From: Escherichia coli
GTDB lineage: Bacteria; Pseudomonadota; Gammaproteobacteria; Enterobacterales; Enterobacteriaceae
NCBI RefSeq assembly: GCF_024298765.1
Contig: NZ_CP101210.1
Strand: one strand, 5' to 3'
DNA length: 64,000 nucleotides
Positions within the stretch are counted from its first letter, which is position 1; every line of letters starts with the position of its first letter. Positions 2,510-64,000 of the stretch are shown here, piece by piece. The translations under genes and the position numbers were made by a program. The notes below the pieces were generated by a model that was given only the letters and a program-made list of their open reading frames with translations, did no database searches and had not been told where the DNA came from.

Positions 2510-6025
<3,516 letters not shown>

Positions 6026-10131: not shown

Positions 10132-10732
10132 ACTCCCGCTGATCGCCATTTTGCGCGGCATTACGCCCGACGAGGCGCTGGCGCATGTTGGCGCGGTGAT
10201 TGACGCCGGGTTCGACGCGGTTGAAATCCCGCTGAATTCCCCTCAATGGGAGAAAAGCATTCCCGCCATCGTTGATGCGTATGGCGATAAGGCGTTGATT
10301 GGCGCAGGTACGGTACTGAAACCTGAACAGGTCGATGCACTCGCCAGGATGAGCTGCCAGCTCATCGTTACGCCCAATATCCATAGTGAAGTGATCCGCC
10401 GTGCGGTGGGCTACGGCATGACCGTTTGCCCCGGCTGCGCGACGGCGACCGAAGCCTTTACCGCGCTCGACGCGGGCGCTCAGGCGCTGAAAATATTTCC
10501 GTCATCGGCTTTTGGTCCGCAATACATCAAAGCGTTAAAAGCGGTATTACCACCGGACATCGCAGTCTTTGCCGTTGGCGGCGTGACGCCAGAAAACCTG
10601 GCGCAGTGGATAGACGCAGGTTGTGCAGGGGCGGGCTTAGGCAGCGATCTCTATCGCGCCGGGCAGTCCGTAGAACGCACCGCGCAGCAGGCAGCAGCAT
10701 TTGTTAAGGCGTATCGAGAGGCAGTGCAATGA
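10115..10732 (+). CDS. dgoA: 2-dehydro-3-deoxy-6-phosphogalactonate aldolase
   Basis: 205 aa; overlaps dgoK end; KDPG-aldolase family; operon context. Confidence 0.9.
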
Positions 10733-50455: not shown

Positions 50456-51679
50456 ATGGCTAAAAACAAAGGTATTTGTCGGAATAAAAAATGCAGTAAT
50501 CCTGTTTCAGAATTTGATGAGGCAAATGCCTTAAGGTTATGCGATGATCATTATAAGCTATGGAAGCGAAATAAAGAGAATCGTCGGGTCAGGAATATTT
50601 GTCGTATAATCAGTAAATATGACAAAAGTCTGGACCGGGAGATATTTTATGGAGTAAGAGATGCTGCAAAAAATAAAACGGGAAAGAGAATTATTGAGGA
50701 CGCAAAAATATTACATCAATGCCGTGCCTCAAAGCAAGTAAGAAAAAGTTTTCACAAGGGTGTGCTTCGGTCACGGGAATGGCTTAATACACAGGAGTTA
50801 CTGAGCAGAAAACATATATCTGTTACAGGTGAACTATTTAAATTTTACATAAAAGATATTATCAGATTATATTGCTATAAGTTTCTCTACAGCAGAGAAT
50901 ATCTTAATGAAAACGCATACAAAAAACGATATCAGAGTGATATTCACCCCAGAAAAGTTAATGTTCCGATACTGCAACTTGAAGTTGCATGGATAAATAA
51001 TAATTGCCGTTCAAGTGATTCAAGCACTGATATTATTATCCTTCCGAGGATGATAAGAAGAATGGTTGTATTTAATTATACGAAGATAAATAAACAATTA
51101 GAGAAATTGTTAGGGGGGATAGCACGAAAACAAACCTCAGAAAGGAATAAAGGCGGTCTCTATACCAGAATAAAAAAAGAAAGTGACTTTCTTTCTATGG
51201 ATAGATTTATGGTGGAAATAGAAAATATCATAAGGCCTGAAAGGTTTCCGACATCAATTTATCCAGTCTTTTCACATTCATTTATTGAACGAGAGCTTCC
51301 GCTACTGAATCTTGCTCGATCACAGTATAAAAGAGCAATAAGTAAAAAAGTGGCGAATTCAATTTTTTATACTTTGCAAAAAACTAACGTAGCATTATGG
51401 CTACATCTTGAAATGTTTGCTCTGGTGGCATTCATTAAACTGTATACAGGAAAAGGTTTTGAATTCATAAAAAACATGTGTGCATTTATCGATTATAATA
51501 ATGGGATAATAAAATCCACACATGAAGAACTACTGGGTGAAATTAAGCATAACATTCAGGTTAATTTGAAGGTGAACCCTGATAATTTTCCTGAGCTAAT
51601 AAATATATACAATTCATGTTTTAGTAAAAATATATTTTTATATGATATTAATGATGGTAATTTTAAATGGTGTTCATGA
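50456..51679 (+). CDS. hypothetical protein, Lys-rich with N-terminal Cys/His cluster (candidate novel defense/abortive-infection gene)
   Basis: 407-aa ORF; purine-rich RBS; very AT-rich codon usage; C8-x4-C13...C29-x2-H32; divergent from GTPase gene. Confidence 0.6.
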   Translation: MAKNKGICRNKKCSNPVSEFDEANALRLCDDHYKLWKRNKENRRVRNICRIISKYDKSLDREIFYGVRDAAKNKTGKRIIEDAKILHQCRASKQVRKSFHKGVLRSREWLNTQELLSRKHISVTGELFKFYIKDIIRLYCYKFLYSREYLNENAYKKRYQSDIHPRKVNVPILQLEVAWINNNCRSSDSSTDIIILPRMIRRMVVFNYTKINKQLEKLLGGIARKQTSERNKGGLYTRIKKESDFLSMDRFMVEIENIIRPERFPTSIYPVFSHSFIERELPLLNLARSQYKRAISKKVANSIFYTLQKTNVALWLHLEMFALVAFIKLYTGKGFEFIKNMCAFIDYNNGIIKSTHEELLGEIKHNIQVNLKVNPDNFPELINIYNSCFSKNIFLYDINDGNFKWCS

Positions 51680-51978
51680 TTCTAAAATAGCAAATTCATA
51701 TTGCATATTAATTATCAACAAAAAACACATAATAAAATTTCAATAAGTTACCTGCTAATGGTGCTGATGATCCGCCAGTTTAGTATGGTTATATGATTTG
51801 ATGGTTAATGCTTACAGATAATCACACTTTCTTATGAATAGTATAAATGAGCATGCCATAGTCGTTTGTTCAGAGATAAAATTTACTGAATGAGCTTATG
51901 TTGTGGTTATCTGTACTTACCGGATACGACGACTTATATTCCTCACATTATATGGCTTAACTTTTCTGGGGTAAAGCG

Positions 51979-52044
51979 ATGGAGTTACAGACGCTGATTA
52001 CGATGGTTTACTGTCTCGTTATCACGGGATTTCTGCTGTACTGA
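51979..52044 (+). CDS. putative 21-aa hydrophobic mini-protein (speculative)
   Basis: ORF MELQTLITMVYCLVITGFLLY preceded by GGGGTAAAGCG; could be chance in AT-rich DNA. Confidence 0.2.
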   Translation: MELQTLITMVYCLVITGFLLY

Positions 52045-52184
52045 ATACGTGAACAGGAAAATAACTCCAGAGTAAATCTGCTCTGTTTTTAGGACAGAAA
52101 ACTCCATGCTGGCTGTAAAAGTGAAAAATTAACACCCAGTATGTATGGAAGTCTGAAGATGTTGAGAATGTCGGTATGATACTA

Positions 52185-52330
52185 TATACACGTATTTTAC
52201 TAAGTATTTTTACTAAGCATTTCAGTAAGTGTTATACACGTATTTTCTACTAAGTGTTTTACCAGACATACACGTATTTTCATAAACACTTCTACAAGTG
52301 TTTTCGTTAAGCATTGCTATACACATCCAG
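52185..52330. repeat. tandem imperfect direct repeats (ATACACGTATTTT ... ACTAAGTnTTTT)
   Basis: tatacacgtatttt at 52185 and 52233, catacacgtatttt at 52267, gctatacacatcc at 52317; each followed by actaagt/acaagt then a T-run. Confidence 0.5.
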
Positions 52331-52842
52331 TTTAGTAAATCTTTACGTTAACTAAATCAGTTTAATGCTGCTGTAAAACCTTTCTGTTTAAGCAATCAAT
52401 CTGCTATTCGATTTTACTGATGTTACGTTTAACCTTTCCTTAGATTTCGAGTTTCGACGTTAGCTTGAGAAAAGTATCTTTACGTAAAGCCCAGTGAATT
52501 AACTCAAATCCGATTGAGGTAACCTGATGCGATTTACTGTGAGTTTGCGATAACACTGTTAAATGGCTTATGGATGATTTTGTAACGGCGAGATTGATAA
52601 GGTGATTAACTGGCCCTGGTGTTTTTTCTCAGCGTAAGGTGATTATCTTCATCATAAGGCTCTTTTCAGAAAAAGTGTGATGATTGGTTGTGGTGTTTTG
52701 ATTCAGATGAGGATCTGCCAATGATTATGATGTATTGTAAGAAATAACGCCTTCAGAATGTTGGAGCATGCACTTACACAAACTGTTTTTCTAAAATTAA
52801 GGGAACAGTTTAAAGAGTATAAACTGTTCATCTTCTTCAGGA

Positions 52843-53373
52843 TTAAGCTACATTGTTGTTATGACTGACAGGATTGTTTTCTTCCCCTGACTCTGGGCTT
52901 AACAGTCCCTGGCGTTGTAGATATTCACTGACTGACATTCCAGAACTACGGATCCTGTCAGAGATTTTACGAAATTGATCCTTCCATTCTGCAGGTAATT
53001 TCTTAATTTGTCTGACTTTACAGGCTACACTGTACGGGGTTCGCCCTAGTTTCTCTGCCAGCCAGAAAAGGTGTTTACCAATTTCATCGTCCGGTACATC
53101 CTCCAGAACATCTCGCAATAAACTCTCGTCTGCCTCATTCCATGCCACACCAGCATTTGGGAAACGAGGATCGATCTCTCTTTCCTTCTTCTCCTTCTTA
53201 CTTTGCTCTTTTCGGGATGATACAGATACGACAGAACGTTCTTTTACCGCTGTAATTGCCATAACTGCATTGAGCAGAGATCTGCGCTCCACATCGTTCA
53301 GCATTTTTCCTTCACAGATCAAATCATTCAGGATGTCAATGACTAGATTCAGACTTTCTTCTGTTAGCTTCAT
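52843..53373 (-). CDS. hypothetical protein with putative HTH
   Basis: 176-aa ORF; AAGG RBS 8 nt upstream; charged KE-rich linker; HTH-like LAEKLGRTPYSVACKVRQIKK. Confidence 0.55.
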   Translation of the reverse strand: MKLTEESLNLVIDILNDLICEGKMLNDVERRSLLNAVMAITAVKERSVVSVSSRKEQSKKEKKEREIDPRFPNAGVAWNEADESLLRDVLEDVPDDEIGKHLFWLAEKLGRTPYSVACKVRQIKKLPAEWKDQFRKISDRIRSSGMSVSEYLQRQGLLSPESGEENNPVSHNNNVA

Positions 53374-53987
53374 ATTTCAGACCTTGAAGTATGTAGATAA
53401 TCAGCACAATTACTAATGTGATAAATATCAGAAGATAATTTACAGGTAAACCGGAAAATACATCTGAAGAATAAAGGCCTCAGCTTAACGTTTCAGCCAG
53501 TTTGTGAGCTGATTGAGGTACGGCGATGACATTAACGGGAATTACTCCCCTATAGCTCTGAGCTTATTTTTCACCCTGGCAACATATGGTGGCTACTGCG
53601 CATGGTTTTGGAGTAGATATCTTACTACTCGTAGAATTGTGCTTACTGGTCAGGCCAGCGCACAGGCATTCCGTGCAATCAATAGAACACTGGTTTTTTA
53701 GTCTTCCGTTACCCATCAGGATGTTAGTGCAGATTCCGGTGTATTCGATCAGTTGTTCGGCGAATCAGCGATCGATCACGATGCGATTTCGTATGTTAGG
53801 GATGCTGGTATGATTACTCGCTGAAAAATAATGTGAAAAGGCAGTTTTTCTTTAGACATTTAGCTCATTCATGCTGTTGTTTTACGTTTTGCTGTCGTGT
53901 GCAGGATTATCTTTTCGTTACGGGACGATTCATTCCGTTTTAATCAGGAGCTATTGGCGTTGCTCATTGGTGGGATGCCGTAAAGTT

Positions 53988-54035
53988 TTACCGCGGCGAT
54001 TAATGATGTGAAGTCAATCCAAATCAACGGAGATC
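53988..54035. repeat. conserved leader element (copy 1) shared with 62702-62744
   Basis: ttaccgcggcgattaatgatgtgaagtcaatccaaatcaacggagatc versus ttaccgccttgcttaatgatgtgaactgaagtcaacggagatc. Confidence 0.55.
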
Positions 54036-54042
54036 TCTCATC

Positions 54043-54774
54043 ATGAATCAACCAATACACAATGATTACTGGTTATCCCGTTTTGAAAGTATTCTCAACA
54101 GTGCCCTGGTGCAACACCGTGCCGTCTCGTTAATCCGGGTGGATTTACGTTTCCCTGAGCATATGCCTGTCACCATCATGGATCCCGATCCGGATTCAGC
54201 GGTGATTTCTCGTTTTTTCGAATCCCTGAAAGCCAAAATTCAGGCTTACCAGCGGAAAAAACGACGTACCAACAAGCGTGTGCGTGCAACCACCCTGCAT
54301 TATTTCTGGTGTCGAGAGTTTGGCAAGGAAAAAGGCAGGAAACATTATCACGTGATATTACTGCTCAACAAAGATACCTGGTGCTCGCCAGGGGATTTCA
54401 CCGTTCCTTCTTCGCTGGCGACGCTGATCCAACTGGCATGGTGTAGCGCTCTGCATCTTGAGCCCTGGCAGGGTAATGGACTGGTTCATTTTTCCAGGCG
54501 GACGCCTTTCCGTAAACCGGCATCATCTGATGCTCGCCCTTCTTCCGATGATACGCCTTTGTCGGGTGGATGTTCTGAAACCAGGAAGGCTTCAGACAAA
54601 AAGCCGGGTGAAGCCGCTGTTCTCTGGATCAAGCGTGGTGATGTGGAAGCGATGCAGAAAGCCATGGAGAGAGCCCGTTATCTCGTGAAGTATGAGACGA
54701 AGCAGCATGACGGTTCTGGTCAACGTAATTATGGTTGCAGCCGTGGAGCGGGGCGTCTACTGGATGGCAGGTGA
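54043..54774 (+). CDS. inovirus Gp2-like replication-associated protein (YagK/YfjJ family)
   Basis: 243 aa; HYHVILLL motif region; family assignment from memory. Confidence 0.65.
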   Translation: MNQPIHNDYWLSRFESILNSALVQHRAVSLIRVDLRFPEHMPVTIMDPDPDSAVISRFFESLKAKIQAYQRKKRRTNKRVRATTLHYFWCREFGKEKGRKHYHVILLLNKDTWCSPGDFTVPSSLATLIQLAWCSALHLEPWQGNGLVHFSRRTPFRKPASSDARPSSDDTPLSGGCSETRKASDKKPGEAAVLWIKRGDVEAMQKAMERARYLVKYETKQHDGSGQRNYGCSRGAGRLLDGR

Positions 54775-62085: not shown

Positions 62086-62652
62086 ATGCCTAAATCTTAC
62101 ACACCAAACTGGTTTTTTACCGCTTTACTTGACAATCACATCAATCAAATGATGGCACGCTATTCCTGCCTGCGGGCCTTACGGATGGATTTCTTCTACA
62201 GGAAGGATACGCCTGATTTCTTACAACCTGATCATCGTTGGCTTGAATTACAACTGCGTATGCTGCTGGAGCAGGTTGAACAGTTTGAAAATATGGTTGG
62301 CTTCTTCTGGGTGATTGAATGGACGGTTGATCATGGTTTTCATGCGCATGTGGTCTTCTGGCTCGATCGTCAGAGGGTTAAAAAAATATATCCCTTTGCG
62401 GAGCGGATTACGGAATGCTGGCGGTCTATTACGCATAACAGCGGTTCGGCACACCGCTGTACATATCAGCCGCATTATACATACAACATCAACATTCCTG
62501 TGCGCCACAACGATCCTGAAAGCATCGATAATATTCGCGGTGCCCTGCATTATCTGGCAAAAGAAGAGCAAAAAGACGGGCTGTGTGCCTACGGCTGCAA
62601 TGAAGTTCCTGAACGTCCTGCTGCAGGGCGTCCTCGTAAGCCTCACTTCTGA
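62086..62652 (+). CDS. inovirus Gp2-like protein (YagK/YfjJ family paralogue)
   Basis: 188 aa; FHAHVVFWLDRQ motif region analogous to HYHVILLLNKD of the 54043 gene. Confidence 0.6.
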   Translation: MPKSYTPNWFFTALLDNHINQMMARYSCLRALRMDFFYRKDTPDFLQPDHRWLELQLRMLLEQVEQFENMVGFFWVIEWTVDHGFHAHVVFWLDRQRVKKIYPFAERITECWRSITHNSGSAHRCTYQPHYTYNINIPVRHNDPESIDNIRGALHYLAKEEQKDGLCAYGCNEVPERPAAGRPRKPHF

Positions 62653-62744: not shown

Positions 62745-62909
62745 ATTCACTCTGAACCACATCCGGTGTTCTGTCCCTTGTCGGTGACCTGATCTTCCCG
62801 TTCTGCCCCGGTTCTTCACTTATTCCATCAACCCCATCCGCAAACCATAACACGTCAGCTTATTCACGGGCAGGACGCATTGTGGGCTGCGCATAACGGA
62901 GCATATCTT

Positions 62910-63482
62910 ATGAATGCTATCCCTTATTTCGACTATAGCCTGGCCCCCTTCTGGCCATCTTATCAGAACAAAATCATCGGCGTTCTCAACCGTGTGTTGC
63001 GCGAGCAGTCCTGCTCCCGAATACGGCGGATCCTGCTTCGTCTGCCGGGGGAACATGGCAACATCTTCAGCGACAGAAAAACCTGGTTCGGTATGGCCTT
63101 TATCGAAACCGTCAGTGCGCTGATGAATGCAACACCCGGACGTGACCTCTGCTGGCTCCTGACACGTCATCCTGAAAAACCGGAATACCACGTGGTGCTG
63201 TGCGTCAGACAGGAGTATTTCGACGGCCCTGAACTGGATCGGCTGATTCTGGATGCCTGGAGCAACGTACTGGGCTTCGCATCACCGGGTGAAGCAGCAC
63301 CGTACCAGAAGCAGATCACCCGGGATGTGGTGCTGGACAGTTGTTCACCGGACTGCGAAGAGAGACTCAAAGAGCTGATATGGGCGTTCAGTGATTTCGC
63401 CCGCGATCGTCGTGGTGTGCGCGATCCGGAAGCCCGTTACCTCGCCGGTAATCCCTGGTATCCCGTAGCAGGCCAGCTCTGA
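62910..63482 (+). CDS. hypothetical protein, possible third Gp2-like paralogue
   Basis: 190 aa from MNAIPYFDYS; GGAG RBS; EYHVVLCVRQEYF motif. Confidence 0.5.
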   Translation: MNAIPYFDYSLAPFWPSYQNKIIGVLNRVLREQSCSRIRRILLRLPGEHGNIFSDRKTWFGMAFIETVSALMNATPGRDLCWLLTRHPEKPEYHVVLCVRQEYFDGPELDRLILDAWSNVLGFASPGEAAPYQKQITRDVVLDSCSPDCEERLKELIWAFSDFARDRRGVRDPEARYLAGNPWYPVAGQL

Positions 63483-63550
63483 AAGCTCAGCTCAGCAGAT
63501 TCACCCGCATTTGCCCAACATTCATAAATCTCACAGAGGACATTCTGACC

Positions 63551-63787
63551 ATGTTGACCTCAATGACAGGTCACGACAGCGTATTGCTGCGTGCCGACGA
63601 TCCCCTGATCGACATGAACTACATCACCAGCTTCACTGGTATGACCGACAAATGGTTTTACAAGCTGATCAGTGAAGGCCATTTCCCTAAACCCATCAAA
63701 CTGGGGCGCAGCAGCCGCTGGTACAAAAGTGAAGTGGAGCAGTGGATGCAGCATCGAATCGAGGCATCACGAGGGGCAGCAGCATGA
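63551..63787 (+). CDS. AlpA-family prophage regulatory protein (excisionase-like HTH)
   Basis: 78 aa; ...ITSFTGMTDKWFYKLISEGHFPKPIKLGRSSRWYKSEVEQWM resembles AlpA/Xis-type HTH. Confidence 0.7.
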   Translation: MLTSMTGHDSVLLRADDPLIDMNYITSFTGMTDKWFYKLISEGHFPKPIKLGRSSRWYKSEVEQWMQHRIEASRGAAA

Positions 63788-64000
63788 AACGTGTTGTAAT
63801 GCCGGTACGCTGGCAATGTGCAAAATACCAGCGTTGGTATTGTGGAAATCAGCCCTGTCCCTGGTGCTGGCGACATTTACGTTCATCTTCTTGCAGACAT
63901 TCTCCAGTCAGCCAGCAGGTTGTAGCTCTTCCTGACTGATTCGTCATTCCATTCTTATTGATTATAACTGGCATTACACCGGTGCTGGCGTGCTTTCCTG

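Follow-up and report, generated by a model that had tools for sequence, protein, structure and literature searches.

The 64-kb stretch of DNA analyzed here, hereafter the window, is 100% identical to Escherichia coli chromosomes and holds a genomic island adjoining yicL and nlpA. Within this island, at positions 52186..52345, lies an array of about a dozen short direct repeats that varies in copy number among genomes, forms part of a conserved non-coding block, and is followed in every locus where this could be checked by a gene of the Gp2 (YagK/YfjJ) family, whose product is predicted to be an HUH-type nuclease. A copy-variable array in a conserved block that is tied to an initiator-like gene most likely consists of protein-binding sites. 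From these sequence features, and by analogy with characterized origins, we tentatively propose, at well short of even confidence, that the array may represent iteron-like binding sites in an origin or control region used by the Gp2 protein.

Composition of the repeat array

The array is built from two interleaved types of unit. The A-type unit is the 13-mer ATACACGTATTTT, for which a scan of both strands of the 64 kb finds three exact copies and no further one. They start at 52186, 52234, and 52268, one base above the positions given in the first-pass annotation of this DNA, which had rightly recognized a motif recurring three times and a degenerate fourth copy near 52317; the latter starts at 52319. 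Start-to-start distances between A-type copies, the degenerate one included, are 48, 34, and 51 bp, close to the units of roughly 34–48 bp that had been proposed. The B-type unit of ~12–13 bp follows the pattern ACTAAGYRTTT, whose exact matches at 52199, 52212, and 52249 are the only ones in the window; the total at up to one mismatch is also three, which is not above chance. The last of three tandem B-type units, at 52224, is a looser copy. In nearly all versions of the array the right end is formed by TTTAGTAAA, which follows the degenerate A-type unit. The elements of the array are as follows.

52186..52345, + strand: direct-repeat array, ~12 units of 10–19 bp (mean ~13 bp) in a single orientation, each ending in a T-run
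52186..52198, 52234..52246, and 52268..52280, + strand: A-type units, copies 1, 2, and 3, ATACACGTATTTT, exact match
52199..52233, + strand: three tandem B-type units, ACTAAGTATTTTT, ACTAAGCATTTC, and AGTAAGTGTT, spaced 13 and 12 bp apart
52249..52259, + strand: B-type unit ACTAAGTGTTT, exact pattern match
52284..52303, no strand assigned: palindrome AAACACTT-CTAC-AAGTGTTT, an inverted B half joined to a B unit, in this version only
52294..52317, + strand: two looser B-type units, ACAAGTGTTTTC (52294) and GTTAAGCATTGC (52306), common unit types across versions
52319..52331, + strand: degenerate A-type unit ATACACATCCAGT, matching the core at 8/13 positions

Several measures place this repetition far beyond chance. 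Repeated 8-mers number 22, against 1.4 +/- 1.6 in dinucleotide-preserving shuffles, none of 2000 of which reaches 22. The periods given by Tandem Repeats Finder are 13 and 25, with a score of 73 that is the maximum of the window, and the most repeat-rich 166-nt segments of the 64 kb all overlap 52121–52346. Self-alignment, a check that the first-pass annotation had suggested, defines the periodicity through self-identity peaks at lags of 24–25, 48–50, and 12–13. The region has a G+C content (GC content) of 30–32%. As is typical of iterons, there are at least three direct repeats of ~10–25 bp in one orientation, beyond chance expectation. The three A cores are identical at 13/13 positions and their 12-nt flanks agree at 3–6/12 positions only, a combination more readily accounted for by selection on the core than by a single recent segmental duplication.

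A conserved non-coding block linked to Gp2

The array region occurs in 1864 of the 5426 complete genomes of E. coli, in as many as 6–7 places per genome, and is annotated in none; strain ATCC 8739, for example, has an identical block. Six further loci were aligned with the window (alignment A1), and the boundaries of the block were taken from BLAST comparisons to loci L002, L005, and L006.

52056..52712, no strand assigned: left part of the conserved non-coding block, holding the array (BLAST, alignment A1); no conserved open reading frame (ORF)
52713..53865, no strand assigned: 1153-bp segment that replaces ~290 bp of the block of shorter loci (BLAST), in 18/58 loci
52843–53373, − strand: 176-amino acid (aa) ORF inside the 1153-bp segment
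53866..54042, + strand: right part of the conserved block, reaching the Gp2 ribosome-binding site and start codon
54043..54774, + strand: Gp2/YagK-YfjJ family gene, 243 aa, predicted HUH-type nuclease (Pfam, motifs) and proposed partner of the array

Left of ~52056 the genes differ completely between loci. Given the fixed block, its linkage to Gp2, and the differing genes to its left, the array is part of the island backbone and not of a cargo spacer, as had originally been supposed; the variable cargo lies to the left of it. Among the 58 loci whose contig extends far enough to check for Gp2, a Gp2 gene lies downstream of the array in 58/58, the constant linkage to an initiator gene that is expected of iterons. 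The gene begins ~1.08–1.22 kb from the left end of the block in 40 of these loci, in which the 176-aa gene is absent, and ~2.0 kb from it in the 18 loci in which the 176-aa gene is present. On the + strand the block is G+T-rich at ~52400–52800 and again at 53500–54000.

Being absent from 40/58 array loci, the 176-aa gene cannot be an obligate partner of the array. Its product had been described as a helix–turn–helix (HTH) protein, a label that is unsupported given that it has no significant match in Pfam; its best Pfam match is NikA-like (E = 0.025), and NCBIfam and PADLOC likewise return nothing significant. The 407-aa protein encoded to the left of the array has no Pfam, NCBIfam, or PADLOC match, and a weak PHROG match of the 176-aa protein (E = 0.003) is the only one for either neighbor. 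We rejected both genes as partners of the array, for which both are dispensable.

Predicted HUH-type features of Gp2

The 243-aa Gp2 protein matches the Pfam families YagK_YfjJ_C (6e-36) and REP_ORF2-G2P (1e-7), and has weak matches to PHROG replication-initiator families. In an alignment of 17 family members with identities down to ~33% (alignment A5), an RVDL strand is invariant, and an HxH motif (H101, H103) and a Y213xxK216 motif are nearly invariant; by sequence, these correspond to the three classical motifs of HUH rolling-circle initiators. A structure model with a mean predicted local distance difference test (pLDDT) score of 76.7 matches the nuclease/origin-binding domains of NS1, adeno-associated virus (AAV) Rep, SIRV Rep, and Helitron proteins. 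The array thus neighbors a putative initiator with HUH and catalytic tyrosine motifs and a predicted HUH fold, as is expected of a rolling-circle origin. Gp2-like proteins have been listed among the core genes of islands integrated at tRNA or transfer-messenger RNA (tmRNA) genes, with no role assigned (PMC12595487), and our literature searches found no function described for YagK/YfjJ.

Residues 153–190 of Gp2 fall in an insert of ~40–45 residues that is predicted to be disordered, is rich in Ser, Pro, and Asp, and is absent from homologs of 189–207 aa. The island carries several Gp2/YagK-YfjJ paralogs or fragments (54043–54774, 62086–62652, 62880–63482, and 63424–63990); the 188-aa Gp2 ORF has HAHVVFW and YLAKEEQK, and the repeat block lies upstream of the 243-aa type only.

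Conserved motifs and spacer to the left of the array

The block contains further elements to the left of the array.

52062..52073, + strand: motif 1, TAACTCCAGAGT (family consensus ATAAYTCCAGAGT), at the left edge of the block
52068..52090 (stem 52068–52085), + strand: terminator-like hairpin CAGAGTAAATCTGCTCTG followed by TTTTT; a weaker stem is read on the − strand
52062..52185, no strand assigned: non-coding spacer of fixed length, from motif 1 to the array
52152..52174, no strand assigned: 23-mer TCTGAAGATGTTGAGAATGTCGG, invariant in alignment A1 apart from one R position
52173..52189, no strand assigned: motif 2, GG plus a TA-rich element, GGTATGATACTATATAC; TATAGT on the − strand

Measured from 8 nt ahead of motif 1 to a point inside the first repeat, the sequence is 143 nt long (144 in two) in 27 variants, which differ in the spacer almost exclusively by substitutions at ~16% pairwise divergence; a near-constant length despite this divergence suggests that spacing is constrained. 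Insertions and deletions abound in the rest of the block, unlike in the spacer. The spacer is non-coding, with stops in all six frames and substitutions that lack a 3-nt periodicity. The stem of the terminator-like hairpin at motif 1 is kept only partly among E. coli variants.

Mean pairwise differences are 0.158 for the spacer and 0.122 for the array, with 0.165 and 0.145 for the remainder of the block. These values exceed that of Gp2 fourfold-degenerate sites, so there is no detectable purifying selection on the block as a whole; all that stands out against that background is the length of the spacer, the unit cores, the 23-mer, and motif 1.

Motif 1, of 12–13 nt, occurs as a single copy, in the same orientation, upstream of Gp2 homologs of ~41–50% identity from Brenneria, Providencia, Morganellaceae, and metagenomes; no other non-coding element of the module is conserved as deeply. 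Identities of the distant homologs are ~36–42% by local alignment and ~41–50% in alignment A5. Equivalents of motif 2 (TTGG or TCGG plus a TA-rich element) follow motif 1 after ~85–105 nt in all distant loci and read TATAGT, TATATT, or TACTAT on the minus strand; the element is similar to the nonamers, likewise TA-rich, at which some HUH proteins nick. The distant loci share a layout of motif 1, ~100 nt, the TA-rich motif 2, an AT-rich tract, and Gp2. In them the GTPase/antirestriction operon (− strand) and Gp2-AlpA (+ strand) are neighbors that point away from each other, 0.3–1.3 kb apart. In E. coli cargo has been inserted between the GTPase operon and the block, the block having stayed with Gp2.

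Repetition within the AT-rich tract is significant in 3 of 10 lineages, namely the window, L087 (units such as TACAGAGAGTATATAGAAC), and L090 (CTATGTGTTT), and the direct repeats of the latter two sit at the same relative position as the array of the window. The layout is thus conserved, and the repetition is a property of some lineages only. A Brenneria locus (L013) has separate ACACATTTTA repeats at 3290–3370, near the start of a leftward 323-aa gene; these resemble the E. coli A unit and have a different position, on the far side of motif 1.

To the left of the array the − strand encodes a CbtA/CbeA toxin–antitoxin system, RadC-like, antirestriction, and DUF932 proteins, a WYL/HTH regulator, and a YfjP-type GTPase, and a + strand gene for the 407-aa hypothetical protein lies between the GTPase operon and the array. 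The array itself sits in 1.16 kb without an annotated gene, to the right of which follow the 176-aa ORF (−), the 243-aa gene annotated as "inovirus Gp2 family" (+), an IS2 insertion sequence (IS), and then ireA. Positions 50456–52055, between the GTPase operon and motif 1, form a cargo hotspot found at the same position in L002–L007, with unrelated contents lacking a family match: the 407-aa gene in the window, a 376-aa gene in one locus, or pairs of ~310 + ~265 aa.

Variation and distribution of the array

Across loci there are 35–37 distinct versions of the array, 117–238 bp long, the differences between them being whole units, singly or in groups, that were gained or lost. Two or more A-type units occur in 28 of 37 versions, and four or more B-like units in 30 of 37. 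With the invariant 23-mer TCTGAAGATRTTGAGAATGTCGG immediately left of the array (52152–52174) as the anchor, scans of public collections identified 67 loci in metagenomes; of two of these (L044 and L033), one has an IS3-family element in the array and the other lacks the right half of the array plus ~190 bp beyond it. An exact-pattern scan with the same 23-mer of 100,044 species genomes, one per species, yielded two E. coli-like metagenome bins only, indicating that this particular block is essentially an Escherichia feature. A scan of a phage collection gave no match to the block, and there is no DNA match to it in CP4-57 or CP4-6 of K-12, whose yfjJ and yagK are only ~30% identical at the protein level.

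Proposed role of the array and alternative explanations

We infer that Gp2 may bind the array, nick nearby DNA, and thereby support replication or transfer of the island. The island would excise as a circle, and several Gp2 molecules would load on the A units (ATACACRTRTTTT), on the B units (CTAAGYRTTT), or on both, which would place the catalytic tyrosine on a nearby conserved cleavage site. Candidates for this site are the TA-rich motif 2, which adjoins the array, and motif 1, at a fixed distance of ~125 bp. The array would in this view be a counterpart of the bind locus of rolling-circle origins, whose initiators use separate sites for binding and nicking (PMC5714925). Rolling-circle-type replication or single-strand transfer would begin at the cleavage site, and the same binding of Gp2 may also autoregulate transcription. 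Of the roles first suggested for the repeats, iterons for Gp2-like proteins and an operator array remain the best supported, and an RNA antitoxin of type III toxin–antitoxin systems lacks the defining features, as discussed below.

A number of observations weigh against iteron-like sites for Gp2. The block diverges more (0.12–0.17) than Gp2 fourfold-degenerate sites (0.087), and the period of the array is 12.4/25 bp, not the helical-phase 10.5–11 or 22 bp. In E. coli the array lies 0.9–1.85 kb from the Gp2 start codon, which is unusually far, and no comparable array precedes the second Gp2 paralog (188 aa). In the shortest E. coli version repetition falls short of significance (p = 0.19), some copies have an IS insertion or a deletion within the array, and L006, L086, L098, L097, L096, L013, and L014 have no significant repeats. 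Apart from TTGGT, present once in motif 2, the lineages share no enriched short word, and the block has no conserved hairpin that could mark a nick site.

Several of these points would be expected if the repetition were neutral, the AT-rich tract after motif 2 duplicating and deleting units by slippage or unequal recombination. The repetition itself would then be functionless, with any function residing in single sites or in the flanking motifs. The existence of versions that differ by whole units, the short versions without significant repetition, the distant lineages, most of which lack repeats, the occurrence of IS insertion and deletion variants, and a divergence above that of Gp2 synonymous sites are all consistent with this explanation, and we regard it as a genuine possibility, if on the whole a somewhat unlikely one. 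It is at odds with the identity of the cores next to diverged flanks, with two interleaved unit types at irregular spacing, which do not resemble a uniform slippage array, with the presence of significant arrays at the same relative position in three divergent lineages, and with the multiple A and B-like units held by most versions.

The more specific form of the proposal, in which motif 1 (ATAAYTCCAGAGT), the ~100–125 bp spacer, motif 2, and the array together constitute a rolling-circle origin driven by the YagK/YfjJ protein, with a nick site and Rep-binding sites, is in our judgment rather doubtful. Rolling-circle initiators act on an origin with separate bind and nick sites (PMC5714925), an arrangement that the layout described here could provide. 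As in the double-strand origins of the rolling-circle replicons phiX174, pT181, and pMV158, which have separate nick and bind loci, the gene for a putative HUH/Rep-type initiator adjoins a non-coding region, and a conserved short motif is accompanied by direct repeats in one orientation tens to ~100 bp away; the bind locus of pMV158 consists of three 11-bp direct repeats. Unlike in those origins, the nick site here is only a candidate and has no conserved hairpin, the array has two unit types, a 12.4-bp period, and a highly variable number of units, its distance from the gene in E. coli is large, and the element is a tRNA-integrated island of at least 30 kb, whereas those replicons are phages or small plasmids.

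It is unlikely that the array is a transcriptional operator or serves in silencing, its units binding a regulator and controlling a leftward promoter at motif 2, the Gp2-AlpA operon, or both. Candidate regulators would be H-NS, the WYL/HTH protein of the island, and an AlpA-like factor whose gene follows Gp2 in related loci. The corresponding region of distant relatives is intergenic between the divergent GTPase operon and Gp2-AlpA, and motif 2 reads as a good −10 hexamer on the − strand in every lineage; however, neither strand showed a promoter-like site in or near the array, a consistent −35 element is likewise lacking, and in E. coli cargo parts the array from the GTPase operon, with Gp2 far to the right. 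The low GC content would suit silencing, and alpA is silenced by H-NS in a CP4-57-like element of Shewanella (PMC5148205). Recombination directionality factors such as Cox, Apl, and Xis bind arrays of direct repeats, and, like the present array, theirs lie in a switch region flanked by divergent transcription units, in integrative elements with an AlpA-like factor. Their sites, however, are one helical turn apart and recur at att sites (PMC7498355), whereas the period here is 12.4 bp; near int/attP of a complete circular island no second cluster of units was found, in a search whose pattern for B units was too strict.

It is quite improbable that the block is an origin of transfer (oriT), recognized either by Gp2 in the capacity of a Rep-like relaxase or, through oriT mimicry, by the relaxase of a helper element, with the antirestriction, RadC, and toxin–antitoxin genes forming a leading region. 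Many genomic islands have been proposed to carry only an oriT, with defense and counter-defense genes nearby (bioRxiv 10.64898/2026.01.13.699239), the leftward operon encodes antirestriction, DUF932, and RadC-like proteins, and Gp2 is a predicted HUH nuclease; against this, the block has no DNA similarity to plasmids except for three records that carry the same block, no conserved inverted repeat adjoins a candidate nic site, and the helper element is hypothetical.

A role as RNA, either as a type III antitoxin-like repeat RNA or as a small or leader RNA spanning the array, is highly improbable: a small + strand hairpin left of the array that tolerates only G-U-compatible changes, the terminator-like hairpin at 52068–52085, and the G+T-rich + strand right of the array would be consistent with it, but the units are imperfect and irregularly spaced, RNAalifold gives weak folds on both strands of the left spacer, and a sliding-window run over 33 aligned blocks with a column-shuffle control gives a consensus folding energy of ~0 over the array on both strands and no convincing conserved structure anywhere in the block. 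An Rfam search returned nothing relevant, no promoter-like site was found in or adjoining the array on either strand, and no terminator follows the array, the only terminator-like hairpin lying to its left. We also rejected a hairpin at the palindrome formed by AAACACTT and AAGTGTTT, whose left arm changes without compensation in other versions and is thus not conserved as a hairpin. The type III antitoxin fails on each defining feature: in place of fixed-length, near-identical repeats of ~34–36 nt or more there are two unit types of ~12–13 bp with irregular spacing and flanks that are 25–50% identical; the arrangement of promoter, repeats, terminator, and toxin is absent; and the repeat RNA is not predicted to be structured. 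There is no + strand ORF of at least 40 aa between the array and Gp2, and because the neighboring genes vary, no conserved toxin is linked to the array.

Three further candidates were rejected. Small ORFs find no support, a 40-aa ORF on the − strand losing its start codon in some variants. A clustered regularly interspaced short palindromic repeat (CRISPR) array had already been discounted in the first-pass annotation, and rightly so, in that the units are contiguous and 10–19 bp long, not near-identical repeats of 23–50 nt with unique spacers, and no cas genes are annotated in 39.9–64.7 kb. The A units resemble the R2 DnaA box TTATACACA, but the array has two one-mismatch matches to TTWTNCACA, of which the window has 113 against 116 expected, so that there is no excess.

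A free circular copy of an island of this family

Of the three plasmid records that carry the block, pRHB40-C01_2 (CP057032.1; L093) is circular, has 62,375 bp and no typed replicon, and contains the full gene set of the island. At 10300–10720 its integrase gene follows a DUF4942 gene across a junction containing TTCGATTCCGAGTCCGGGCACCA, the 3′ end of tRNA-Phe. This is, by sequence, the structure expected of an excised island with attP, here present in the databases as a closed replicon in its own right. Only this one case is seen among ~1,900 genomes, and among chromosomes the same junction is contiguous in one record only, which is probably a tandem island. The free circle is suggestive of autonomous maintenance and not proof of it.

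Comparison with other repeat-containing elements

Arrays of direct-repeat binding sites beside initiator genes are of an already known kind. The origins of Staphylococcus aureus pathogenicity islands (SaPI) and phage-inducible chromosomal islands (PICI), the RepA iterons of PICI-like elements (PLE), and oriV of Salmonella genomic island 1 (SGI1) belong to chromosomal islands and phage satellites, integrated elements that replicate after excision from a direct-repeat origin beside their own initiator. Their initiators are a primase-helicase, a RepA_N protein, and an IncN-like Rep, in contrast to the YagK/YfjJ HUH protein here, and these elements replicate, whereas replication of CP4-57-like islands is a proposal only. 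The origin-binding domains of parvovirus NS1 and AAV Rep share only 9–15% sequence identity with Gp2, and they act on 4-bp repeat units in hairpinned telomeres, unlike the ~13 bp units in ordinary duplex DNA of this array. Our literature searches found no account of these repeats or of the motif architecture upstream of YagK/YfjJ-family genes.

Implications

Roughly one in three complete E. coli genomes has islands of this type, often in multiple copies, and the islands carry virulence, fitness, and defense genes, here ireA, toxin–antitoxin, and antirestriction genes. With its variable array, a spacer of fixed length, and a 13-mer that is deeply conserved, the cis-acting region beside Gp2 makes the role of Gp2 directly testable. 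Were the repeats neutral, they would still be a useful marker of a hypervariable locus. If the region is indeed a rolling-circle origin, CP4-57-like tRNA-integrated islands of Enterobacterales would replicate or transfer in single-stranded form after excision, which would explain the free 62-kb circle and would give a function to a widespread protein family without one.

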